Shown: positions 7,217 to 38,933 of the stretch, piece by piece
Layout of the letters: each line of letters opens with the position of its first letter
Position numbering within the stretch: position 1 is the stretch's first letter
Sequence record: NC_073073.1
Source of the DNA: Escherichia phage mckay
Reading direction: 5' to 3' (one strand)
DNA length: 44,443 nt
Notes under the pieces: model-generated
Databases searched by the model: none
The model's input: only the letters and a program-made list of their open reading frames with translations
Told to the model about the DNA's origin: nothing
Program-made: the position numbers and the translations under genes

Positions 7217-8641
7217 ATGGCACGATTCCGACGCCGCGAATATCAGAAGTTGATTACCGCGTTCATCCTCAAGCATAAGCGATGTAATATCTGGGCGACA
7301 ATGGGGTCGGGTAAAACCGGCGCGACAATGTGGGCGCTGAATAAAATGTTCCAGACGGGCATCCTGTCCCACCAGGAGGACCGCGTACTGGTTCTGGCCC
7401 CGCTGCGCGTTGCATCCGGCACCTGGCCCCCGGAGCAGGAGAAATGGCGGTTCTCATCCCTGCTGGTCGTAGACGGCACTGGACCAGAGAAGGACCGCAT
7501 AGCCGCGCTGGAGAGTAACGCTAACGTGGTTTGTGTTAACTACGATGTGGTTGAGTGGCTGGTCGACTATTACGGCGATGCGTGGCCCTTTACGGTCGTT
7601 GTTGCCGATGAATCGACTAAGCTGAAAGGCTATCGTAGCAAGCAGGGGAGCAAGCGCGCCCGCGCACTGGCCGCGATTGCACATAAACACGTCAAGCGAT
7701 GGATTAACCTTACCGGCACACCAGCGCCAAACGGGCTAAAAGACTTATGGGGTCAGACGTGGTTTGTCGACGGTGGCGAACGCCTCGGCAGTAGCTATAA
7801 GGCATTTACCGACCGCTGGTTTATTAGCAAGCCTGTTAAGCCTGGCAGCTTCACTATGCAGATCGCCCCGCTCAAGAACTCCGAGAAAGAAATACAACAA
7901 CGCCTGTCAGACGTATCCCTTACTGTTGACGCGGCTGAATACTTCGGGTGCGACAAGCCAATATATACGCCGGTTGTTGTGGACCTACCGAAGAAAGCCC
8001 GTAAGATTTACGACCAGTTTGAAAGCGAGCTATTTGCCGAACTGGAAAGCGGAACAGTGGAAGCGGCGAACGCCGCGGCGAAGACAATTAAGTGCCTTCA
8101 GCTTGCTTCCGGCGCGGTGTATAAGGTGGACGAAGACGGCGAACGGACCGACGAGTGGGTGAAGATTCACGACGCGAAGCTGGACGCGCTGGAAAGTATC
8201 GTGGAGGAGTTGAACGGAGCGCCGTTGCTCGTTGCGTACCAATACAAACATGACCTGGCACGTCTCAAGAAGAAATTTCCGCACGGCGTTGCGCTGGGTA
8301 AAGGTAAGCAGGGCAATAAGGATATGGAAGCGTGGAACAGAGGCGAGATCCCCATCATGTTTGCGCACCCGGCATCGGCGGGCCACGGCCTTAACTTGCA
8401 GGACGGCGGTCATCACCTGGCAATCTTCTCCGATACCTGGAACTTTGAGCACTTTTCGCAGATCGTTGAACGTATCGGGCCGGTTCGCCAGATGCAAGCA
8501 GGACACCCCCGTCCGGTATTCGTCTACATTATCCAGGCGCGCGGAACACTGGACGAACTGGTCGCCGAGCGTCGCGACAGTAAGCGGGATATTCAGGACG
8601 ACTTGATGGAATACATGAAAGCTAAAAAGGCGCGCAAATGA
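7217..8641 (+). CDS. SNF2-family (superfamily 2) DNA helicase
   Basis: Start at ATG 7217 (MARFRRREYQ); Walker A ATMGSGKTGA, DExx-type VVADESTKLK, C-terminal helicase region. Confidence 0.8.
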   Translation: MARFRRREYQKLITAFILKHKRCNIWATMGSGKTGATMWALNKMFQTGILSHQEDRVLVLAPLRVASGTWPPEQEKWRFSSLLVVDGTGPEKDRIAALESNANVVCVNYDVVEWLVDYYGDAWPFTVVVADESTKLKGYRSKQGSKRARALAAIAHKHVKRWINLTGTPAPNGLKDLWGQTWFVDGGERLGSSYKAFTDRWFISKPVKPGSFTMQIAPLKNSEKEIQQRLSDVSLTVDAAEYFGCDKPIYTPVVVDLPKKARKIYDQFESELFAELESGTVEAANAAAKTIKCLQLASGAVYKVDEDGERTDEWVKIHDAKLDALESIVEELNGAPLLVAYQYKHDLARLKKKFPHGVALGKGKQGNKDMEAWNRGEIPIMFAHPASAGHGLNLQDGGHHLAIFSDTWNFEHFSQIVERIGPVRQMQAGHPRPVFVYIIQARGTLDELVAERRDSKRDIQDDLMEYMKAKKARK

Positions 8642-12212: not shown

Positions 12213-12788
12213 ATGTACGGCGAATACGAAATATCTGGTAAACAATTCCACCTGGCGGCAATGATCGCAAGCATCGAGTTTGACCAGTGGAGATACAAGT
12301 CTGACGCGTGCAAGCAAAGCCGTCTTGTCGGTGTGCTGGGCGAGATGTTTGCGGGCATGTACCTCGAGGGTCAGGCGGGCGGGCGTAGTTGTATCCCGCA
12401 AGGCTTGCTAATGCGTACGGGCCTGTTTAGCGCCAACACCATTGACCGCGGCGATATCATCATGGTAGGCAAGCGCAAGGTTAAGTCCGGTCCAGACTTC
12501 CGCGAGCATGTGATCGATGCCGTATGGACCTACGAGGTCAAGGCCACCAGCGGCATCCGTCGTGGGCTGGTTGAGGCACGTTGCGCTCGCGAATATCTGA
12601 CCCGTCGCGTTGCCGGTGTTATCCTGGTGGGCGTATCGTTCGGGCAACATAACGCGCACGGCGTGATTGAGGATATTGCGGAACCATACGTGATTGTGAA
12701 CGACTGGCCCCTGGTGGAAGTGGAAGGAAAGGAATATTACGAAAGCCCGCTGGTGCGGCGCAAAATGGACTGGGAAAACTCAAACTAA
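12213..12788 (+). CDS. Hypothetical protein (191 aa), last gene of the + strand unit
   Basis: GAGGA RBS; possible D...EVK nuclease-like motif (GDIIMVGKRK...WTYEVKAT), unverified. Confidence 0.5.
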   Translation: MYGEYEISGKQFHLAAMIASIEFDQWRYKSDACKQSRLVGVLGEMFAGMYLEGQAGGRSCIPQGLLMRTGLFSANTIDRGDIIMVGKRKVKSGPDFREHVIDAVWTYEVKATSGIRRGLVEARCAREYLTRRVAGVILVGVSFGQHNAHGVIEDIAEPYVIVNDWPLVEVEGKEYYESPLVRRKMDWENSN

Positions 12789-12814: not shown

Positions 12815-14091
12815 TTATTTACCTTCCAGCTTCTCCACTTTATGCAACAGGTGGACGAAGGCGGCACACAGATCCATTAACAGAACGTTACTATCCAAAG
12901 ACAGCACATCGTCGGTATACCCGATCTCCTTGCGGTCGACTACAACCTCATTCCCTTCCTCGTCAACCCCCTTGACGTCCTCATAAATGGCGTAACCCGG
13001 CAGCAAATGCACGTATTCCGGGTCAATCCTTGCCAGGTCCTGCGCGATAAGGCCGTATCGCTGTACGTCCGACTCCTTATACTTGAACATTGCCGGAAGC
13101 CATTGTCGAACTCGGTTGTAGCTTTCCTCGCCGTCAGTGTATTGGATTTCTTTTTTAAGGTCGCGGTCCGATAGCGGCGCTTTCTGGAACTCGTTAACCG
13201 AAGGGTTGCCGCTGTTACCACTAATCAGCCTTTGGTCTGGCATAAAGCGGAATAGCGCCTCGGAAACACCGTCCTTCCACGTATGAATCCGGTAGTCCGA
13301 CATTTGAGTGTTACGAGAGCGAACAATGCCTGCGCGCACCCAGTCGGCGTACCATTTGTGCATGGTGAAGCCTACCCAACTGTCAGCCCCATACGATACG
13401 TTAGACAGAACTAAGCCGTTTCTTTCGACGTCATTGAATACTAATGACTCCCCACCATTCAGACGTAATGTTGCGTGTTTAACGTTACTATCATCACCAA
13501 CGCCAAGATTAGCGCGTGCCGACGATTTATCTGCGACGTCTGCCAGGTTCTGCGACTTCTTCATGAATTGCGTAGGGTCGATCGCGTTTTTGAAGTCTTC
13601 GGCCTCATTGCGAAATCCTTGCGCTGCTGCTTCAGATGCCGCGGCTTGTTGTTGCAGGTTGCGCATTTCAACGGGGTCAACTTCCTTCAGCAATTGCGAC
13701 AGATAGCCCCACGACATGCCCTGCATAACTTGCCCGTTCGGCAGCGTTACCGTGACTTCTTCTTCGTCTCCGAAGATGGCACGCCAGTTGTTTTCGTCTG
13801 CGATCATCAAGCGCAACGCTTTCTGTGCCTGTACTGTTACGCCCATCGTTGCCAGCGACATGGTATCGCGCTTAACGCCATCCCACGCGAGGTCTGTTGC
13901 CGTGGGTCCGTCGAACGGCAGCACCAGCGTAAGCGCGGTGTCGCTTTCAACTGACGCGATAGCAACAGTGTATGGGACTTGCCCTACTACCAGCGTTAAG
14001 AAGTCGCCAGCGGTAAACGCGGTAAACGTCGTGCCTACCCCGACAACCTCCTTGCTGTTATTCGTTACGGATAGTGTACCCGCTGCCATAG
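12815..14091 (-). CDS. Tail fibre protein with C-terminal intramolecular chaperone (peptidase S74-like) domain
   Basis: Start taken at ATG 14091 (MAAGTLSV, GAGGA RBS) rather than ORF-track 14116. C-terminal LSDRDLKKEIQY...YGLIAQDLARIDPEYV matches the auto-cleaving chaperone domain of tail fibres/endosialidases. Confidence 0.7.
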
Positions 14092-14106
14092 CTGAATCCT
14101 CATAAA

Positions 14107-14138
14107 TTGGTTGCATTAATGGTTAAGCAGTGCAATAC
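14107..14138 (+). promoter_or_regulatory. TTGGTTGCA-containing promoter-like element (TTGCAT-17-AATACT)
   Basis: Motif at 14107-14115 in the divergent gap between the tail-fibre gene (-) and the lipoprotein gene (+). Confidence 0.35.
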
Positions 14139-14169
14139 TAAAACTAAACCAAATATAGGAGATGATACC

Positions 14170-14388
14170 ATGAAAACTTTAATTATGATTTGTGCGGTTC
14201 TTTTGTCCGGTTGTGCCGACATGCCGTCTAAAATCTGCGACGCAACATACATGAATAGTGGTATGGAGTATTCCGTCCAGGTGTTTGGGGTCGCCGACTT
14301 TAGCGGGCACAAAATGCTCGAGGCCGGGTATCCGTTCAACTTCCAGTATGTGTCGGTCGACCACTTCAAAAGCACCACCTGCGAATAA
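14170..14388 (+). CDS. Small lipoprotein (72 aa), moron on the opposite strand to the tail genes; Cor-like candidate
   Basis: Start at ATG 14170 (AGGAG RBS); signal peptide MKTLIMICAVLLSGC with lipobox LSGC; own promoter-like motif and terminator. Confidence 0.6.
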   Translation: MKTLIMICAVLLSGCADMPSKICDATYMNSGMEYSVQVFGVADFSGHKMLEAGYPFNFQYVSVDHFKSTTCE

Positions 14389-14410
14389 GCCCCTTTCGGG
14401 GCGTTTTATA
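14389..14410 (+). terminator. Rho-independent terminator after the lipoprotein gene
   Basis: GCCCC-tttc-GGGGC hairpin followed by GTTTTATA. Confidence 0.55.
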
Positions 14411-15077
14411 TCCCATCCACGTTAATTGCGGTCAGCGCAACGCCTGTGTTTTGATACCCTGCGATGCTCCCTGACCCAGCCTGCGTAGCGACCGCGTTAA
14501 TACGAGTGCCGCTTCCGTTGTCGTAAGCCCCGGCCCCTGCCGAGATCTGGATAATCTGCGGCTGCCCTTGTACAAAGATCTGGATCAGAGTGGCGCCCAT
14601 TAACATAGGTGATACCGCGTACTTACCCGGCAGCGTCTGGTCTATGTTTATCCCGCCGTTATTGCCGAAGCTGCCAACTGTGACTAAATCGGTGAGTACC
14701 TTGCTCTCGTTGGTGAGTATGCACGTCCCGCTGGCGTCCCAAATCGCGAAGCCCCATTTTGGCAGCGGTTGCGGGAATCGCGCGAATACGTACGCCGTGA
14801 CGGTAAAATGCGGGTTATTCTTACCCTGAATGCTTCCGCTAAATATAATCCGGTTACCTGATCGTGACGCCGCCAGGACGCAACGGTTATTCGACCGCAT
14901 AAACACCATCGCCGGATAGTTCGCGGGGATATCCACTGCGCCACTCGCGGTTTTATAATACGCCCCTGCGTCCACTGAGTTTGCCGACACCTTAGCATAG
15001 AGAACGAATGGCGTTGAGTTTGGCGTGACGAATGGGTTGCCGTTGTTGTTGTCAATTAATGCTCCGAAGTTTGCCAT
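14406..15077 (-). CDS. Hypothetical G/N/S-rich protein (223 aa), possibly tail-associated
   Basis: ORF between J and the tail-fibre gene; composition typical of beta-rich structural proteins; no specific motif. Confidence 0.5.
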   Translation of the reverse strand: MANFGALIDNNNGNPFVTPNSTPFVLYAKVSANSVDAGAYYKTASGAVDIPANYPAMVFMRSNNRCVLAASRSGNRIIFSGSIQGKNNPHFTVTAYVFARFPQPLPKWGFAIWDASGTCILTNESKVLTDLVTVGSFGNNGGINIDQTLPGKYAVSPMLMGATLIQIFVQGQPQIIQISAGAGAYDNGSGTRINAVATQAGSGSIAGYQNTGVALTAINVDGI

Positions 15078-15079
15078 TT

Positions 15080-15382
15080 TTACGCTTTCTCCACAAAAAC
15101 TACTACTTCACATTCTGATGCTGGGTAGTTTCCAATACCGACGCTGTTTGCGGCAGATACTGTTATCGTGTTCCCGCTGGCACGGATCGCCCGACCGACC
15201 GTAGTGCCGCCTACGTCCAGCGTAACCGCAAAACCTACTTTCATACCTGACGGAATATCGAACGTCCACGCCCCCGATGTTTGACCTTGTGCCAGTTTAA
15301 TAATTCCGACAACCGAAACGGGCTTTATCCCGTAGTTGTTTGGGCGCCCTTGCGCGTCCCATGTTGCGACACCGAAAGCCAT
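15080..15382 (-). CDS. Hypothetical protein (~100 aa) downstream of J
   Basis: Start taken at ATG 15382 (MAFGVATW, GTGAGG RBS) after a hairpin, rather than the ORF-track start at 15445 that overlaps J. Confidence 0.45.
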   Translation of the reverse strand: MAFGVATWDAQGRPNNYGIKPVSVVGIIKLAQGQTSGAWTFDIPSGMKVGFAVTLDVGGTTVGRAIRASGNTITVSAANSVGIGNYPASECEVVVFVEKA

Positions 15383-15390
15383 GCTATACC

Positions 15391-15416
15391 TCACTAAGAA
15401 AGGGGCCGAAGCCCCT
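15391..15416 (-). terminator. Terminator/attenuator-like hairpin after gene J
   Basis: On the - strand AGGGGC-ttcg-GCCCCT followed by TTCTT; GC stem with TTCG loop. Confidence 0.4.
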
Positions 15417-15419
15417 GTG

Positions 15420-18400
15420 TTACCAATAACCTGTGATTTCACCAATTTGCACGCGGAGCACGCCGTTTCCGTCCCTAACGCTGATTTGCGTGTTTGTCTG
15501 TTTCATCCCGCCACCGTTACCGGTTCCCAGGTTGATAAACGTTCCGTCTTTCCCTAAGCGCCAACCACGCGAGTAGCCGTCATAGTTATTCGATTGCAAC
15601 GTGTCCGTAATCTGCGCGAAGTTGATAGTCGCGTCTTTGATGCGTGCCGTGTCAATATACACCGCGCCGCCGTCTACGATAAACGCGGACGAAAGCGACC
15701 CGTTAGATGGGTGCATGATGTAGAACTGGTCCGCTTTGAATGCGATGCGGGATTTAACCGCGCCGCCTTCCGCCACGACGGAAAGCTGCATACCGGCATC
15801 ATAGTAAGTCCCGTTATACGTCACGCCCGCCTTAAGGCTGTACGTGGCGTTGCCACCAGCATGGTTAAACGTGGACGTCATCTTCTGCTCGATAGCTGCG
15901 GACTGCTGACCGAACTGTGCCGCGACCTGGGTCTTGTACTCCGCCAGCGCGCCCGCTACGTCTGCCGTTGCCGTTTGTACCTGCTGGATGGCAGCTTCCT
16001 GTTCCCCGAACTTAGCGGCAACAGTTTGCTGGTACTGGGCGAAGGCTTGCTCGTGCGTGCTTTGCGCTGTCTGCAACGTGTGGATCGCCGCTTCCGCATC
16101 GTCAAGTCGCGTGCCGATCAACGTCTCCAGTTGAGCGACCGCCTTGTGGGCGTCCGCCGCCACGTTATACGCCACCTTGATTTCCGCATAAATGCCCTTG
16201 TACTCGGCGCGGGCGTTGAACAATTGCTGCGCGTCGGTGAGCATCGCCTCGTAAATACCCTGCGGGATCGTGTCGATTGCTTCCTGGAAGCGTTTACCAT
16301 CCTCGGAAGTCAAGAACTCGTCATCAAGCCCCTTCATGTACTCGTCAACTTTGTCACTCACCTGCCCTTCAAACGGGGCCGACCAGTCCGACAGGTTGCC
16401 GATTTTATCCGCTACACGGGCGCGCAACTGCTGGTAAATTCCGAACTCCAGCGACGTTTGCGCATACTCCGCCCCCGGATATGGGACGTTGGTTAAGAAC
16501 TTCCATTCCGTTTCGCCCGTCTTGCGGACCTCAAGCTCGGTATACGAAATATCCGTCGCGGCGTTGTTGTGGTTCCACTTCCACAAAATTTGGTGAAGGC
16601 CCGAAATCGCGTTGGTGATGATAGGCGCGTTAAGCCCGCCGAGACGACCTTCCACCGGCGTGATAGCGGACGATACCCACGGGGACGAAATCTCGCCCAT
16701 ACCTATTGCGCGGACGCGTGCCTGGTAGTTACCGGAGAACACGTTAGGGATGTGTGCGCCATTCGACGCCGTGCGCGGGATATTCACCCAGTCGTTACCC
16801 CACTGGATTTCCATATTCTGCAGGCTAGTACGCCTCCACTGGATTTCATACACCACGGCATCTTTCACCGGCGGGAAAACAATATCCACGTTGGTGATTA
16901 GCTGGCCTTGCGATGAAATCTGCGACGGAGTTATAGTCACGGACTCCGGCCCCTTCATTACACCGTCTGGTACTTGCGTAAAGATTCCAGGGTCAAGGCG
17001 AGCGCCATTATCAACGGCATCATATTTGCTATCGTTGTACTCGATCCCGCGCACCGAGAAAGTGCTGGTAGAGTCGTCATATTCCAGGTCGGTGATGCGG
17101 AATTTCTGCAACTGGATATCGTTGCCATCCACGCAAAACGGTTGATCGGGGATCGGGTCGGCATCCAGTGCGGTTTTTAGCGTAACCTTGTTGCCGTTGA
17201 CGCTGGCGATCTCGCGAGTCTCCACATTACCGCTATCGGTGCGTACCAGGAATTTATCACCGGGGCGGAACGTGATTTCGCTGTCCGTGTTCAGCACAGT
17301 ACGCGTCCCCGGATCAGACAACAGACGTCCGCCGCGTGTCTCGAAGCCGCCAGAAATATTAGTATCCGCGATCGCGACTACGCTACCAGGAATAAAGAAT
17401 AACCCTTCCATGCCAACTTTAAAGCTAACTTGCTGGTCAAGCTGGTTGGAAATTAGCGCCCAGTGCCCGCGGCGTTGCGCTTCAGATTCACGCGTACAGC
17501 CGATCGCCGTAATATCGAGGCGGTTAATCTTATGGCGGCGCACCAGTTCGACGCGCTGGCCCGTTGCAATGGCGTCCTCGTAGTGGTTCTTCGGGTTGCC
17601 GTATGCTACCGCGAATGTTGAGTACCGAGTTTTCTGGCTTCCCGAGGCATAGTCGAATCGCCCATCAATGACCGAGGCGTTGGTGATAGTGTGCGACACC
17701 GCGGCGACCGGCTGGTCACTGACGATATTTAACATCTGATTGCCCCACCAGGTCATTCCGGCGAAGATGGCAGCCAAATCCTTAAGCACGGTCCAGGCGT
17801 CGGTCTGCGACTGAATGTACATATCATTCTTAAATCGGATCTCCCGCCCGCCGTTGCCGTCACTGACCAGCTGATCGCAGCGCTGCGCAATCTGGTAAAG
17901 CGCGTATCGGTTTAGCATTTGCGGTTTGATACGACGACCGAGGCCAAAGCGCTCAGTAATACAAATATCGTACCAGTGCCACGCAGGGTTATCCGTCCAT
18001 GCGCGTTTAAACGTGCCGTCCCAGTCCCCGGAATAAGTATGATTAATCGGGTCGTAGTTGTTCGGTATTAGAACTTTGCGGCCTTTGCACTTGATGGACA
18101 CGCGCGGGATGTTCTGGAACGCTTTGGCGTCGAACTCCACAAACAACAGCGCGGTTAGCGGGTAACGCAGGCGGGCGTCGATAATCTCAGTGATGGACTG
18201 CACCCGGATATCATTAACCACTTTCGCCGATGTGGAGTCTGCCGTTATGCGGTGCACCTCCACGCGCCAGCCGGTGTTAACGTTCGGAGGTAATTCGATG
18301 CGGTGGTCGCGCTCATACAGCGACATTGTTTTACCAACGGCGGCGAATCTGAACTCACGCGGGTCCGCGTTATCCGTATACACAACGATCTTATAGTCGA

Positions 18401-18839
18401 TGCGCCCGCCCACCAGGTCGCCATTATCTTCGTTAGTGTACAGGGCCGGAATGCCGATTCGAATGCGCACGGCGTCAAGACTGGTGTCATTAATCTGGCG
18501 CACCCACGGCGTGCCGTTTTCCAGTTTTACGCCGACAGATTGTTCACTTTCCACCGCTGAAAATCCGTGGATCACATCCTGGTGCTGTGTGCCCGGACGG
18601 AACTCCACGCGAGCGCCCGGGAAGTTTTCCGACAGGTCGGCGTTCTGGATCGGTGTTCCGTCCAGGTAGACGCGCTGCCGTAATTCGCTGGCGCTCGTAA
18701 TACTTTCGAACTCCCCTTCGCCCAGTGCGAGCAAGATGCGGATTTTAGCCAGCGAATGCAGGCTGTCTGGCGTCTCCTGTGGGGTGTGCTGTTTGCCGCC
18801 GCCGCCTTTATGGCCCGTGACGTCGTAGATAATCGTCAT
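15420..18839 (-). CDS. Tail tip / host-specificity protein (lambda gpJ-like)
   Basis: 1139 aa; position after I/K/L; N-terminal MTIIYDVTGHKGGGGK...ILLALGEGEFE typical of J-like central tail fibre proteins. Confidence 0.85.
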   Translation of the reverse strand: MTIIYDVTGHKGGGGKQHTPQETPDSLHSLAKIRILLALGEGEFESITSASELRQRVYLDGTPIQNADLSENFPGARVEFRPGTQHQDVIHGFSAVESEQSVGVKLENGTPWVRQINDTSLDAVRIRIGIPALYTNEDNGDLVGGRIDYKIVVYTDNADPREFRFAAVGKTMSLYERDHRIELPPNVNTGWRVEVHRITADSTSAKVVNDIRVQSITEIIDARLRYPLTALLFVEFDAKAFQNIPRVSIKCKGRKVLIPNNYDPINHTYSGDWDGTFKRAWTDNPAWHWYDICITERFGLGRRIKPQMLNRYALYQIAQRCDQLVSDGNGGREIRFKNDMYIQSQTDAWTVLKDLAAIFAGMTWWGNQMLNIVSDQPVAAVSHTITNASVIDGRFDYASGSQKTRYSTFAVAYGNPKNHYEDAIATGQRVELVRRHKINRLDITAIGCTRESEAQRRGHWALISNQLDQQVSFKVGMEGLFFIPGSVVAIADTNISGGFETRGGRLLSDPGTRTVLNTDSEITFRPGDKFLVRTDSGNVETREIASVNGNKVTLKTALDADPIPDQPFCVDGNDIQLQKFRITDLEYDDSTSTFSVRGIEYNDSKYDAVDNGARLDPGIFTQVPDGVMKGPESVTITPSQISSQGQLITNVDIVFPPVKDAVVYEIQWRRTSLQNMEIQWGNDWVNIPRTASNGAHIPNVFSGNYQARVRAIGMGEISSPWVSSAITPVEGRLGGLNAPIITNAISGLHQILWKWNHNNAATDISYTELEVRKTGETEWKFLTNVPYPGAEYAQTSLEFGIYQQLRARVADKIGNLSDWSAPFEGQVSDKVDEYMKGLDDEFLTSEDGKRFQEAIDTIPQGIYEAMLTDAQQLFNARAEYKGIYAEIKVAYNVAADAHKAVAQLETLIGTRLDDAEAAIHTLQTAQSTHEQAFAQYQQTVAAKFGEQEAAIQQVQTATADVAGALAEYKTQVAAQFGQQSAAIEQKMTSTFNHAGGNATYSLKAGVTYNGTYYDAGMQLSVVAEGGAVKSRIAFKADQFYIMHPSNGSLSSAFIVDGGAVYIDTARIKDATINFAQITDTLQSNNYDGYSRGWRLGKDGTFINLGTGNGGGMKQTNTQISVRDGNGVLRVQIGEITGYW

Positions 18840-31034: not shown

Positions 31035-31060
31035 GGGGGCCATTATGGCCCCCGAATTAT
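31035..31060. terminator. Bidirectional terminator hairpin
   Basis: GGGGGCC-atta-TGGCCCCC with T-rich tracts on both sides (TTTTGTT on the - strand, GAATTATTTT on the + strand). Confidence 0.55.
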
Positions 31061-31273
31061 TTTCTGCAACTCCAGCACTTGCGCCCTTAGCTTCGCGCCG
31101 CATTCCATATTTTTCACGTCAATCATCAAATCTTCGTCGGGATCCGCGGACGGGTTATCGAACTTGCACGGCGGTCGCAGTGCCGACTCCGTTAGCGGCA
31201 TCAACGGCACGTTGCTTGATCCGCACGCGCTCAGCATCAAAACTACAATCAGGGCGGTTAGGGCGCGTAACAT
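31043..31273 (-). CDS. Outer-membrane spanin (Rz1-like lipoprotein), putative
   Basis: Start taken at ATG 31273: MLRALTALIVVLMLSAC has signal peptide plus lipobox LSAC; short Pro-containing mature part; lies in a second frame overlapping the 3' half of the i-spanin gene. Confidence 0.55.
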   Translation of the reverse strand: MLRALTALIVVLMLSACGSSNVPLMPLTESALRPPCKFDNPSADPDEDLMIDVKNMECGAKLRAQVLELQKIIRGP

Positions 31274-31484
31274 ATTTAACAACCTCTTTCGTGATAGTCC
31301 GGTATTCTACGTCGCGGGCTTGTTCGGCCTGCACGGAGCGCTCAATAACTTTAGTTTGCTGCCGTTGGGCTTCTGCTTGCGCTTCTTGCGCTGCTCTCGC
31401 CTCAACGCCAGCGCGGTAGGAATCACCCAGCCAGAAGCCAACCGCCAGGCCGATAACCAGCCCAATCGCTGCATATTTAATCAC
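31155..31484 (-). CDS. Inner-membrane spanin (Rz-like), putative
   Basis: Start taken at GTG 31484 (GGGGGC RBS); N-terminal transmembrane helix IKYAAIGLVIGLAVGFWLG, then coiled-coil (RAAQEAQAEAQRQQ) and a C-terminal Cys; overlaps the o-spanin gene. Confidence 0.5.
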   Translation of the reverse strand: MIKYAAIGLVIGLAVGFWLGDSYRAGVEARAAQEAQAEAQRQQTKVIERSVQAEQARDVEYRTITKEVVKYVTRPNRPDCSFDAERVRIKQRAVDAANGVGTATAVQVR

Positions 31485-32580
31485 GCCATAGCCCCCGGTT
31501 TTTAAGCTGTGCAATAGTCATCAGTTCGCCGGAATCGGTGAACATCTTTGGCACTTTCACACCGCGCATAATCTGGTCGGCGCGTTGCACCCCGTATAAT
31601 TCTTCCAGGATATGGCGCGGCTGGCGCTGCACCCAGGAGAAGAAATCAGTCTGCGCGTCGACCTGCTCACTCAGCAACCGACCCGCGTCAGCCTTCAGTG
31701 CCGGACGCTTACCACTGGGCCAGTCTTCCATGCCCTTAACTTTCCACGTCTCCGTCGAACGGCAGCAATAATGCAGCTTGCCCGGACCAGCGCCATATTG
31801 TGATCCCGCCACCACTTTCCCGCCGCGTTTTCCTTTGGTGTCGGGAGTGACGTCAACAGGATAAAACAGGCGATCGCGTAGCTGGCACATAGGGGAAGTA
31901 TGAGTGTCCAATGTGGCCAACCATTGGCGACCTTCGAGAATATCGTCATTAGCTTTCACCATTAATTCGCGGGCGGTCGCCGCATAGTGGTTGACAGCGG
32001 ACTTAACAACGCTTGAGATTGCTTGCGCACTACGACCGCCGAGCGCGCGCCTCACGTCCGCGATAATTTCCATAGTCGGCTTGCCCTGGATGAATCCGGC
32101 GCGCACCTGATTGCCGATCTGCGTCCTTGTCCACTCTGAAAGTGAATCCGGCCATTGCATCATGGTGTTACCCTGGAACGGGTTTTTCATCGCAGTCGCT
32201 GCGATCTGCGCGCCTGTTACTACACCCACCACCTCGACCGCAGGTACGGCGACCACCGGCTGGATCACTGCCGTTAATGTGTCGGCGAGATAATCGGCCT
32301 CGATGTCGGCAAACTCCTGAAGGCTTTCAGCCAGCGCCTTAAACTCGGTGCGCAGTTCTGTTTTAACGGTCTTGTCGAGTTGCGTTAACAGTGTGGTAAG
32401 TGCCTTGTTGCTCATGGACTTTTTGCCATCAAGTAACTCGGTCAGCTTACCAAGTAAAGTGGGCCGGAACTTCTCCCACATAGCCAGCACCCTCCGCGCC
32501 TGATCATTGCTCAGGCGCTGGGTGAAGATGTGACGGCGAATCATTCGATCCGCCAAATGTTGATTAATTGTCTTCGCCAT
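31477..32580 (-). CDS. Head morphogenesis protein (Mu F / SPP1 gp7-like minor head protein)
   Basis: 367 aa; ATLDTHTSPMCQ...DG is the characteristic Mu F-like motif; follows the portal gene. Confidence 0.75.
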   Translation of the reverse strand: MAKTINQHLADRMIRRHIFTQRLSNDQARRVLAMWEKFRPTLLGKLTELLDGKKSMSNKALTTLLTQLDKTVKTELRTEFKALAESLQEFADIEADYLADTLTAVIQPVVAVPAVEVVGVVTGAQIAATAMKNPFQGNTMMQWPDSLSEWTRTQIGNQVRAGFIQGKPTMEIIADVRRALGGRSAQAISSVVKSAVNHYAATARELMVKANDDILEGRQWLATLDTHTSPMCQLRDRLFYPVDVTPDTKGKRGGKVVAGSQYGAGPGKLHYCCRSTETWKVKGMEDWPSGKRPALKADAGRLLSEQVDAQTDFFSWVQRQPRHILEELYGVQRADQIMRGVKVPKMFTDSGELMTIAQLKNRGLWRD

Positions 32581-37922: not shown

Positions 37923-38414
37923 TTATGCTGCGTTTCGCCCGATTCTCTCGGCAACGTCCCACTGCTTACCATCGAATAGCGCCTGTCTGCCGATTGCACG
38001 ACGGACAAGCCCCTTGAGCACTACCCCGCCTTGCTTGCGGAATTGTGGCAGTGTAGCCCGTACCTTCGCCCAGTCACCCAGGCGGATCGCATCGTCGAAA
38101 TCACCCGCGACGTCGTCCGGCATGATCGGACCTGGACCAGCATTGATAACCAGGTCCACCAGCGCGTCGAATTGCGCCTGATTGATGCTCGGGTGTGCGT
38201 ACTTGTTCACCCAGTTTTCGGCATACGCCACGTCGCGCTTGAGTAGCTCCAGTGCTTCCGCACGGGTAATGCTCCGCGGCGGATTAGTGCCGGTGTGACC
38301 ATAGCCCCAGGTATACAGGCCGCGGGCCTGCTCTTTCTTAGTCGCGAAATACGGCACTGGGCTGAATTGCTCCCATGCTGCCGTAAATCTTAGACCGTTG
38401 TCACTGAATCGCAT
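37923..38414 (-). CDS. Endolysin (phage lysozyme, GH24-like)
   Basis: 163 aa; N-terminal region with E...TWGYGHT(G) resembles the GH24 lysozyme signature; adjacent to holin-like genes. Confidence 0.7.
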   Translation of the reverse strand: MRFSDNGLRFTAAWEQFSPVPYFATKKEQARGLYTWGYGHTGTNPPRSITRAEALELLKRDVAYAENWVNKYAHPSINQAQFDALVDLVINAGPGPIMPDDVAGDFDDAIRLGDWAKVRATLPQFRKQGGVVLKGLVRRAIGRQALFDGKQWDVAERIGRNAA

Positions 38415-38646
38415 GCTTTACCCCATTCAAAACAGCATTACGCAGCGTGCGCAATGCAAACAGCCAGATTAACGCGGTCCAGGTGGTGTCTGATACGTCT
38501 CCTGTTTGCAACAATCCGATAACGCAGACCATCGCCGTTAGCAGATATAACACCCGGCCTAAAATGCCATCCTGGACGGACGGCGCATACACGTTAAACA
38601 GGGACGAAGCCCCTATGATAACAAACAACAGGACGGAGATAATCAT
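38401..38646 (-). CDS. Small membrane protein (holin/antiholin-like)
   Basis: 81 aa with two predicted TM helices; start overlaps the upstream holin stop (ATGA). Confidence 0.5.
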   Translation of the reverse strand: MIISVLLFVIIGASSLFNVYAPSVQDGILGRVLYLLTAMVCVIGLLQTGDVSDTTWTALIWLFALRTLRNAVLNGVKHAIQ

Positions 38647-38933
38647 TTTGCGCCCCCCGGAAGTCGGAACGACTCAATAGTCTCCCTGATCCGGGCGGCT
38701 ATTGGCATCCAGAAGATGGCAGTTACGAAGCCCAACCCGGCAACAGTGCGCTCGCCAGATAAGCCAGCCCACTCGGCAATAGCTGGCGCACCAAATATGG
38801 CACACAAGAAGCCGACCACGATATATAAAACGAAGTTTAGCGGCCCTTTCGTAGCCTCGCCATGAATGCGAGCGCCAACGAAGCCCCCCGCGAGACACGC
38901 GAGGGCGAATAGCCACTCGTTTAGCTTATCCAT
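38643..38933 (-). CDS. Holin, putative
   Basis: 96 aa; multiple hydrophobic helices with charged C-terminus; first gene of the lysis cassette. Confidence 0.55.
   Translation of the reverse strand: MDKLNEWLFALACLAGGFVGARIHGEATKGPLNFVLYIVVGFLCAIFGAPAIAEWAGLSGERTVAGLGFVTAIFWMPIAARIRETIESFRLPGGAK

Follow-up and report, generated by a model that had tools for sequence, protein, structure and literature searches.

A Cor-family lipoprotein gene in the receptor locus of the virulent Dhillonvirus Escherichia phage mckay

Which protein is encoded by the small gene at positions 14170-14388 of Escherichia phage mckay (NC_073073.1), and what might it do for a virulent phage? The original prediction, made from the letters of the DNA, described a lipoprotein "moron" between the tail genes and the tail fibre and proposed that it is a Cor-like exclusion protein, as in T1-like and lambdoid phages. 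The window, meaning the whole stretch of 44,443 nucleotides that was analysed, holds a Dhillonvirus genome in full (about 44.4 kb), and its first 25 kb are 91-92% identical to ZCEC10, PaulFeyerabend (BASEL Bas15) and others. The phage is thus a relative of the T1-like Drexlerviridae and not itself T1-like in the strict sense. Rfam and tRNA scans over the whole window returned nothing. We consider it highly probable that the gene encodes the Cor-family superinfection-exclusion lipoprotein of a virulent, FhuA-dependent Dhillonvirus, the exclusion itself being predicted from sequence.

The cor gene and its expression signals

The gene and the elements around it are listed below.

12815-14116 as listed, or 12815-14089, minus strand: lateral tail fibre gene (phrog_1980 and Peptidase_S74), divergent from cor
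14111-14139, plus strand: promoter-like element, with -35 TTGCAT at 14111-14116, a 17-nt spacer, TG at 14131-14132 and -10 AATACT at 14134-14139
14157-14161, plus strand: Shine-Dalgarno sequence AGGAG, read from the sequence and kept as AGG(A/G)G in relatives
14170-14388, plus strand: cor, from ATG 14170 to TAA 14386-14388, encoding the 72-aa precursor of a predicted Cor-family superinfection-exclusion lipoprotein (open reading frame, NF047972, phrog_1119, identity and dN/dS)
14389-14407, plus strand: intrinsic terminator GCCCC-TTTC-GGGGC plus GTTTT, with the hairpin at 14389-14402 (terminator scan, folding and conservation)

The program-made list of open reading frames extends the cor frame to a TTG at 14107, which gives 93 aa. 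We placed the start at ATG 14170, because AGGAG lies 8 nt 5' of this codon and the homologues align from that Met. The product starts MKTLIMICAVLLSGCADMPSK, and the full 72-codon translation is MKTLIMICAVLLSGCADMPSKICDATYMNSGMEYSVQVFGVADFSGHKMLEAGYPFNFQYVSVDHFKSTTCE. The dN/dS of the cor frame against five Dhillonvirus relatives was 0.12-0.17, the lowest of the six frames. The antisense mirror frame of cor gave 0.16-0.25, and the other four frames gave 0.64-2.3, with one pair undefined. The cor frame is a genuine one, kept by purifying selection. As had been claimed, cor runs on the opposite strand from its neighbours, since the lateral tail fibre gene on one side and the 223-aa gene on the other are both on the minus strand. 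The true start of the lateral tail fibre gene is likely 14089, which would leave an intergenic region of 80 nt before cor; of six relatives, four lack the ATG at 14116 and all have the 80-nt gap.

The promoter-like motif attributed to cor is present as a conserved match of the extended -10 type, and it is weaker than the prediction implied, being below the threshold of the consensus scan. It is absent from the list of that scan because its -35 hexamer matches at three of six positions. TTGCA, TG and AATAnT are kept in six Dhillonviruses, with one variable column per hexamer, and 7 of the 17 spacer positions vary. The element is also conserved in the LptD-type phage TheodorHerzl. The matches that the consensus scan did report (14162-14189 on the plus strand and 14209-14182 on the minus strand) lie on or inside the gene start and are no more than shuffles give. 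The minus-strand match was treated as unproven because it is not kept in SM_A8.

The terminator expected after cor was found by the scan. It sits between the convergent cor and 223-aa genes, and its T-run overlaps the stop codon of the latter (14406-14408). Its stem pairs in 100% of cells across seven distinct sequences of Dhillonvirus, T1 and Hanrivervirus. Three compensatory pairs (G-C to C-G) occur in Hanrivervirus aaroes and count as one event. Conservation of the pairing is the stronger argument for this terminator, because the folding energy of -10.5 kcal/mol has a z of only -1.7 and the pair swap is a single event.

Family membership and predicted structure of the protein

The reading of the product as a Cor-like exclusion lipoprotein was supported by an equivalog model, by phrog_1119, by identity to named Cor proteins and by the gene cassette described below. 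The NCBIfam model NF047972, "phage exclusion lipoprotein Cor" (equivalog), scored mckay Cor at 61.2 bits against a cut-off of 31. As controls, T1 Cor (55.8 bits) and phi80 Cor (140.9 bits) both passed. The model gave no match on T5 Llp or on the lipoproteins of PTXU06 and JL1. The latter two carry the same or a near-identical signal peptide as mckay Cor, yet they fail NF047972. The match to phrog_1119, "Cor superinfection exclusion protein", was full length with E = 4e-27; PHROGs are less discriminating than NF047972 here, as T5 Llp is also in phrog_1119. A tblastn search of phage genomes gave 242 records. The identity was 49% to T1 Cor (6e-14), 42% to N15 Cor (4e-10) and 39% to phi80 Cor (3e-9), each at a query coverage of at least 97%. 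It was 98.6% to the annotated exclusion protein of phage bob and 85-97% to other Dhillonviruses. By these sequence comparisons, the gene clearly belongs to the known Cor family, outer-membrane lipoproteins with which phages shut down FhuA, their own receptor, on cells that they have infected. A word-indexed homologue search gave six near relatives with the single protein and 200 with an alignment as the query. An exhaustive search of representatives gave 17 matches, three of them long; two of these three (968 and 1359 aa) are repeat-rich and were taken as compositional false positives. The Pfam search assigned neither Cor nor the two proteins encoded upstream to a family.

The Cor proteins of T1, phi80, N15 and HK022 resemble that of mckay in their size of 72-78 aa, the lipobox, two further invariant cysteines and the AGYPF motif. 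The cor genes of phi80 and N15 are co-directional with the tail genes, whereas cor is inverted in mckay and T1. The phage mckay is virulent, and its Cor has Glu51 in place of Arg; relative to the Cor proteins of temperate phages, the mature N-terminal stretch is shorter by three residues. The closest relatives are the Cor proteins of bob, SECphi18, B2, Bas15 PaulFeyerabend, Bas16 GeorgBuechner and Envy, with 85-98.6% identity. They share the locus, the promoter region and the terminator, and there are point differences only.

Three stretches of the gene carry the protein features discussed here.

14170-14214, plus strand: signal peptide (aa 1-14) and lipobox L12-S13-G14-C15, with the Cys15 codon at 14212-14214, read from the sequence
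14236-14238, plus strand: Cys23, invariant in the family; its presumed disulfide partner Cys71 is at 14380-14382
14320-14337, plus strand: E51-A-G-Y-P-F, the most conserved motif of the family, normally (R/K)-AGYPF, from the homologue alignment

The lipoprotein signal with LSGC is as described in the original prediction. It consists of Lys2, the hydrophobic stretch TLIMICAVLL and Cys15, and the predicted cleavage site lies between MKTLIMICAVLLSG and C. The mature protein would begin with Cys15 in lipidated form. A lipobox was found in 127 of 132 short homologues, and LSGC was its commonest form (76). With mature numbering from Cys15, residue +2 of Cor is Ala and residue +3 is Asp. Among the 127 lipobox homologues, residue +2 was Ala in 78, Ser in 44, Val in two, and Thr, Gly and Lys in one each; it was never Asp. 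Because residue +2 is Ala and the family never has Asp there, the +2 rule established for E. coli lipoproteins predicts sorting of Cor to the outer membrane.

Met1, Cys15, Cys23, Ala52, Gly53, Pro55 and Cys71 were invariant in 40 aligned homologues, and Tyr54 and Phe56 were nearly so. Exactly three cysteines were present in 124 of 127 mature homologue chains. By analogy with the Cys11-Cys58 disulfide of T5 Llp (PMC9586334), Cys23 and Cys71 would form an intramolecular disulfide. The cysteine spacing is similar, from mature residue 9 to 57 in Cor and from 11 to 58 in Llp.

Cys23, Cys71 and AGYPF are all present in mckay Cor, and the basic residue ahead of AGYPF is replaced by Glu51. The residue at this position in 126 homologue representatives was Arg (102), Lys (16), Gln (4), Leu (2), His (1) or Met (1), and none was acidic. 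Here bob carries Arg and Bas15 carries Met. The cor genes of mckay and bob differ only within 14310-14328, R51E being among the changes, and the two proteins otherwise agree in full. Glu51 could mark an altered interaction with FhuA, a point that we did not find stated in the literature and that may be implicit in the BASEL figures.

An AF2 model of mckay Cor, made with 40 homologues, gave a small beta sheet with pLDDT 94-95 over residues 21-70. Its best PDB match in Foldseek was 8A60_B, T5 Llp bound to FhuA, with TM 0.54/0.61, an rmsd of 3.0 Å over 59 columns, 24% identity and a Foldseek E of only 0.047. In BFVD, the first match was a 97%-identical Dhillonvirus Cor, followed by small coliphage proteins (two phages), one with a lipoprotein annotation. 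The best PDB sequence match of the Cor profile was again 8A60_B (E 0.0076). Comparison of Cor with Llp by hhalign gave 89% probability, with only the N-terminal 42 columns aligned. A profile search was needed for this link, because phmmer with the single protein put gamma-crystallins first, through a chance stretch of 26 residues, and gave Llp at E 0.13. The fold of Cor is thus predicted to be Llp-like, the Foldseek E and the sequence link each being weak on their own. AF2 models of free Llp were reported to be inaccurate (PMC9586334).

Llp is a periplasmic lipoprotein of the outer membrane. Its binding partner is the FhuA plug in a non-native state; on binding, the extracellular loops 7 and 8 fold inward and the receptor-binding protein is blocked (PMC9586334). 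The Llp segment Ile39-Trp46 stands in for the FhuA switch helix (PMC9586334), and by manual alignment the E/R-AGYPF-N-F stretch of Cor would lie opposite this segment. Both are small lipoproteins of the outer membrane (by prediction for Cor), with a disulfide that ties the termini (presumed in Cor) and FhuA as the target (presumed for mckay Cor). Unlike Cor, Llp fails the Cor equivalog model, and the identity is about 24%; T5 is without genes like gp22 and gp23. The divergent neighbour of T5 llp is the receptor-binding protein gene pb5, whereas that of mckay cor is the lateral tail fibre gene. Like cor, T5 llp is divergent from a tail gene over a gap of about 80 nt, and T5 has annotated overlapping promoters there. 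We rejected classing mckay Cor as an Llp, given the 24% identity, the 42-column hhalign alignment, the phmmer E of 0.13 and the different neighbours.

The receptor cassette and its exchange among Dhillonviruses

The genes next to cor form a receptor locus on the minus strand, and the whole can be treated as one module.

14184-15583, no strand assigned: exchangeable receptor module with no DNA similarity to the LptD-type phage TheodorHerzl (blastn break points; maps of TheodorHerzl, PTXU06 and JL1)
14406-15077, minus strand: 223-aa gene of the FhuA-type receptor locus (phrog_425 at 7e-67), homologue of T1 ST31 and N15 gp23
15080-15382, minus strand: 100-aa gene of the receptor locus (phrog_557), homologue of T1 ST32 and N15 gp22
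15420-18839, minus strand: J-like tail tip protein of 1139 aa, head of the cassette J / 100 aa / 223 aa / cor (open reading frame list and annotation of relatives)

The 121-aa TTG reading frame listed for the 100-aa gene is probably too long, because the phrog_557 match starts at residue 22 and relatives annotate 303 nt. The order J, a protein of about 100 aa (phrog_557), a protein of about 225 aa (phrog_425) and cor is common to mckay, T1, phi80 and N15. The 100-aa protein is 48% identical to T1 ST32, and the 223-aa protein is 46% identical to T1 ST31. The full cassette is present in BASEL Drexlerviridae and Dhillonvirus phages, all of them FhuA users (2026 paper, PMC13164509). Alleles of the receptor locus matched receptors "without exception" (Maffei et al., PMC8594841), and the terminal receptor of Bas15 and Bas16 is FhuA (S5 table, PMC8594841). 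We strongly infer that FhuA is the receptor of mckay, and hence would be the target of Cor, because the 223-aa protein is 96% identical to that of the FhuA-dependent Bas15 PaulFeyerabend and because phage bob was reported to be FhuA-dependent (PMC10373560). The Dhillonviruses JLBYU37, JLBYU60 and Teewinot need loop 8 of FhuA (PMC10373560); this loop is one of the two that Llp moves. In HK022, N15 and phi80, Cor inactivates FhuA and so shields lysogens from phages that depend on this receptor; it also lowers ferrichrome uptake (PMC3594210, citing Uc-Mass 2004). In the literature, we found no report of a Dhillonvirus Cor tested experimentally.

Comparison with TheodorHerzl by blastn gave similarity through J to 15584, none from 15583 to 14184, and similarity again from 14183. 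The similar part after 14183 holds the first 14 nt of cor, the Shine-Dalgarno sequence, the promoter and the 5' part of the tail fibre gene. The module spans the C-terminal ~55 aa of J, both genes that follow it (100 aa and 223 aa) and cor from roughly its fifth codon. In TheodorHerzl, the slot is occupied by another lipoprotein (MKTLIKSAII...VGC, phrog_4281), followed by a 311-aa protein on the same strand. In JL1, it carries MKTLIVICAVLLSGC fused to another phrog_4281 domain. In the BtuB-dependent PTXU06, exactly MKTLIMICAVLLSGC is fused to a distant Cor-like domain (hhalign 95.9%), which fails NF047972. By megablast, the 99-nt region 14085-14183 is present in 154 phage records and the cor gene in 114. 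Dhillonviruses with different receptors thus share the promoter, the 5'UTR and the first codons of the slot; two of the three examples share the entire signal peptide as well, identical or nearly so.

Because the slot is shared while the module sequences differ, we regard cor as the exclusion half of an exchangeable module that sits behind a conserved promoter and leader. The term "moron" therefore needs correction: cor is less a free-standing moron than a part of a receptor module that is swapped as a block among FhuA-, LptD- and BtuB-type Dhillonviruses. The exclusion lipoproteins of the LptD-dependent small siphophages (Rtp45 and those of Oekolampad, TheodorHerzl and JL1, phrog_4281) follow the same logic, in which a periplasmic lipoprotein alters the receptor (PMC12685063). 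In Dhillonvirus they use the same slot, promoter and 5'UTR as cor, and JL1 has a near-identical signal peptide. In contrast, their mature domain is unrelated to that of Cor and targets LptDE, and their receptor-binding protein gene follows on the same strand.

A more speculative extension, which we hold only tentatively and think rather doubtful, is that the slot is a fixed "socket" for expression and export. It would comprise the promoter, the 5'UTR, the Shine-Dalgarno sequence and the start of the coding region, at most the whole signal peptide MKTLIMICAVLLSGC, and recombination would plug receptor modules into it. These modules may be Cor with the FhuA genes, a distant Cor-like protein with the BtuB genes (PTXU06), and a phrog_4281 protein with an LptD receptor-binding protein (JL1, TheodorHerzl). 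That would put one break point within the signal-peptide coding region or at its end. We did not find this idea stated in the literature, where it may be implicit in figures of BASEL work.

Proposed mechanism and alternative explanations

We propose that a weak extended -10 promoter of its own would drive cor and that transcription would end at the hairpin directly after the stop codon. After export, Cys15 of the precursor would be lipidated and signal peptidase II would remove the signal peptide. The mature protein, a beta-sheet domain of 58 residues whose ends would be tied by Cys23-Cys71, would bind the periplasmic face of FhuA. As for T5 Llp, the bound FhuA would be locked, and its extracellular loops would no longer accept the receptor-binding protein of a phage. 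Further FhuA-dependent phages, and the phage's own progeny at cell debris, would then be unable to adsorb irreversibly. The same view of allosteric closure has been put forward for other Cor proteins (PMC13164509; 10.64898/2026.03.26.714494).

It is quite possible, if in our judgement somewhat short of probable, that this same protein with this same target was selected mainly because it protects progeny. FhuA would be blocked on debris and vesicles, useless DNA ejection would be avoided, and the exclusion of competitors would be secondary. Preventing adsorption to fragments of lysed cells is a named role of exclusion proteins (PMC9586334), and the same is said of Cor and Llp (PMC13164509). A virulent phage has no lysogeny to protect. 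The promoter slot in LptD-type Dhillonviruses also carries a receptor-binding protein gene on the same strand; therefore, the slot need not be strictly early. However, progeny protection and superinfection exclusion are compatible, as both rest on the same molecular act, and the sequence separates neither benefit from the other.

Within the preferred reading of cor as an exclusion gene, the direct contact of Cor with FhuA can be questioned. The title of Arguijo-Hernandez et al. (2018) suggests a part for other outer membrane proteins, so that Cor, unlike Llp, might act through or need such proteins and alter FhuA indirectly, and a 2026 preprint calls the molecular mechanism of Cor not yet elucidated (10.64898/2026.03.26.714494). 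We think this unlikely. The predicted fold of Cor is that of Llp, likewise in PMC13164509 and 10.64898/2026.03.26.714494. An AF3 model docks KanT1 Cor on the periplasmic side of FhuA with an ipTM of 0.84, and the cassette co-varies strictly with FhuA use (both PMC13164509).

The charge reversal from Arg to Glu at residue 51 raises the question of whether the mckay allele is weakened or inactive. Arg or Lys occupies the position in 118 of the 126 representatives, with no acidic residue among them, and the motif would correspond to Llp Ile39-Trp46. On the other hand, the position is not invariant, as Gln, Leu, His and Met occur and the FhuA-dependent Bas15 has Met; moreover, the reading frame is intact and otherwise encodes the protein of bob. 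A weakened or inactive allele is improbable in our view.

A target other than FhuA, for example the TonB-dependent transporter BtuB, is very improbable. Cor-like lipoproteins do occur in BtuB-dependent phages (PMC13164509), and the BtuB-dependent Dhillonvirus PTXU06 has a distant lipoprotein of the Cor superfamily in the same slot. However, the PTXU06 protein fails the Cor equivalog model that mckay Cor passes, and mckay has the full FhuA-type cassette, including a 223-aa protein 96% identical to that of an FhuA phage.

That the product is an o-spanin or the frame a chance one can be practically dismissed: Cor does combine small size with a lipobox and a predicted outer-membrane location, but it is not Pro-rich, no i-spanin adjoins it, and a separate i-spanin/o-spanin pair lies at 31155-31514 and 31043-31282, so that this real pair (31043-31514) and the Cor family assignment rule out the o-spanin, while clear family membership and purifying selection exclude a chance open reading frame. 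The spanin pair lies far from the endolysin and two holin-like reading frames at 37923-38933 (holin and endolysin are named in SECphi18).

As a discovery, the analysis adds little, because this kind of gene is already known and annotated as Cor in dozens of near-identical genomes and the link between the cassette and FhuA has been published; it mainly confirms an existing kind of annotation. Any well-behaved Cor, the natural Glu51 variant of mckay included, could serve for a structure of Cor with FhuA. The prediction of the receptor may be useful for the composition of phage cocktails or for the choice of resistant production strains. For the biology of the phage itself, cor and the two genes upstream of it predict that FhuA is the terminal receptor of mckay and that infected cells would be refractory to T1-, T5- and phi80-type phages.

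Shared leader and exchangeable receptor module

Dhillonviruses with differing receptors have in common the putative promoter, 5'UTR and Shine-Dalgarno site that precede the exclusion lipoprotein gene, together with its first codons. The shared leader region was located in the window and in three other Dhillonviruses:

14085-14214, mckay (window)
7546-7686, minus strand, TheodorHerzl stretch
1801-1930, PTXU06 stretch
1801-1930, JL1 stretch

The signal peptide MKTLI(M/V)ICAVLLSGC is also common, whole or nearly so, to the window, PTXU06 and JL1. The mature domains behind this leader diverge: Cor (FhuA) in the window, a distant Cor-like domain in the BtuB-type PTXU06, and phrog_4281, a lipoprotein family unrelated to Cor in its mature domain, in TheodorHerzl (LptD) and JL1. 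The recombination break points of the receptor module lie at 14183/14184 and at about 15584, within the tail tip gene J.

Codon 51 of cor (14320-14322) is GAG, which places Glu instead of Arg/Lys just before the AGYPF motif. Among 126 homologue representatives, none carried an acidic residue at this place. All nucleotide differences between the cor genes of the window and phage bob cluster in 14310-14328.

The ORF list gives one further gene of the receptor locus differently:

15080-15445, minus strand, 121-aa TTG-initiated ORF

This ORF runs 26 nt into the end of J. Judging by the family match and by how relatives are annotated, the product is more probably a 100-aa protein with its start at 15382.

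Spanin pair

Between the head-morphogenesis gene and a nucleotide-modification gene, a spanin pair was found (31043-31514, minus strand):

31155-31514, minus strand, i-spanin-like 119-aa ORF with an N-terminal membrane helix
31043-31282, minus strand, o-spanin lipoprotein (lipobox LSAC), in another frame and overlapping the former

The endolysin, together with two holin-like ORFs, is encoded about 6.5 kb away (37923-38933).

Lateral tail fibre gene and its neighbour

12213-12788, plus strand, uncharacterised 191-aa protein matching phrog_10558 (E 1e-119)
12820-13503, minus strand, distal part of the tail fibre gene, with a C-terminal Peptidase_S74 chaperone domain
14116 (listed) or 14089, minus strand, tail fibre ORF start
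14182-14209, minus strand, promoter-like match CGGACA-16-CATAAT

The 191-aa gene is the final plus-strand gene ahead of the tail fibre, a position kept in relatives. The ATG at 14116, which shares bases with the -35 hexamer of the putative cor promoter, is present only in the window and SECphi18; relatives begin at the Met equivalent to 14089, which is preceded by GAGGA. The promoter-like match lies within the first codons of cor and is directed at the tail fibre gene; it was not above chance and is absent from SM_A8. In T5, overlapping divergent promoters are annotated between llp and oad (pb5) (2421-2521 of the compared region). The tail fibre gene may have its own promoter or may be transcribed by read-through in antisense orientation to cor.

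Across 12820-13503 the window shows no similarity to TheodorHerzl DNA, and megablast-level matches to 13000-13590 occurred only in SSL-2009a and UAE_MI-01. The distal tail fibre is the usual mosaic host-range region.
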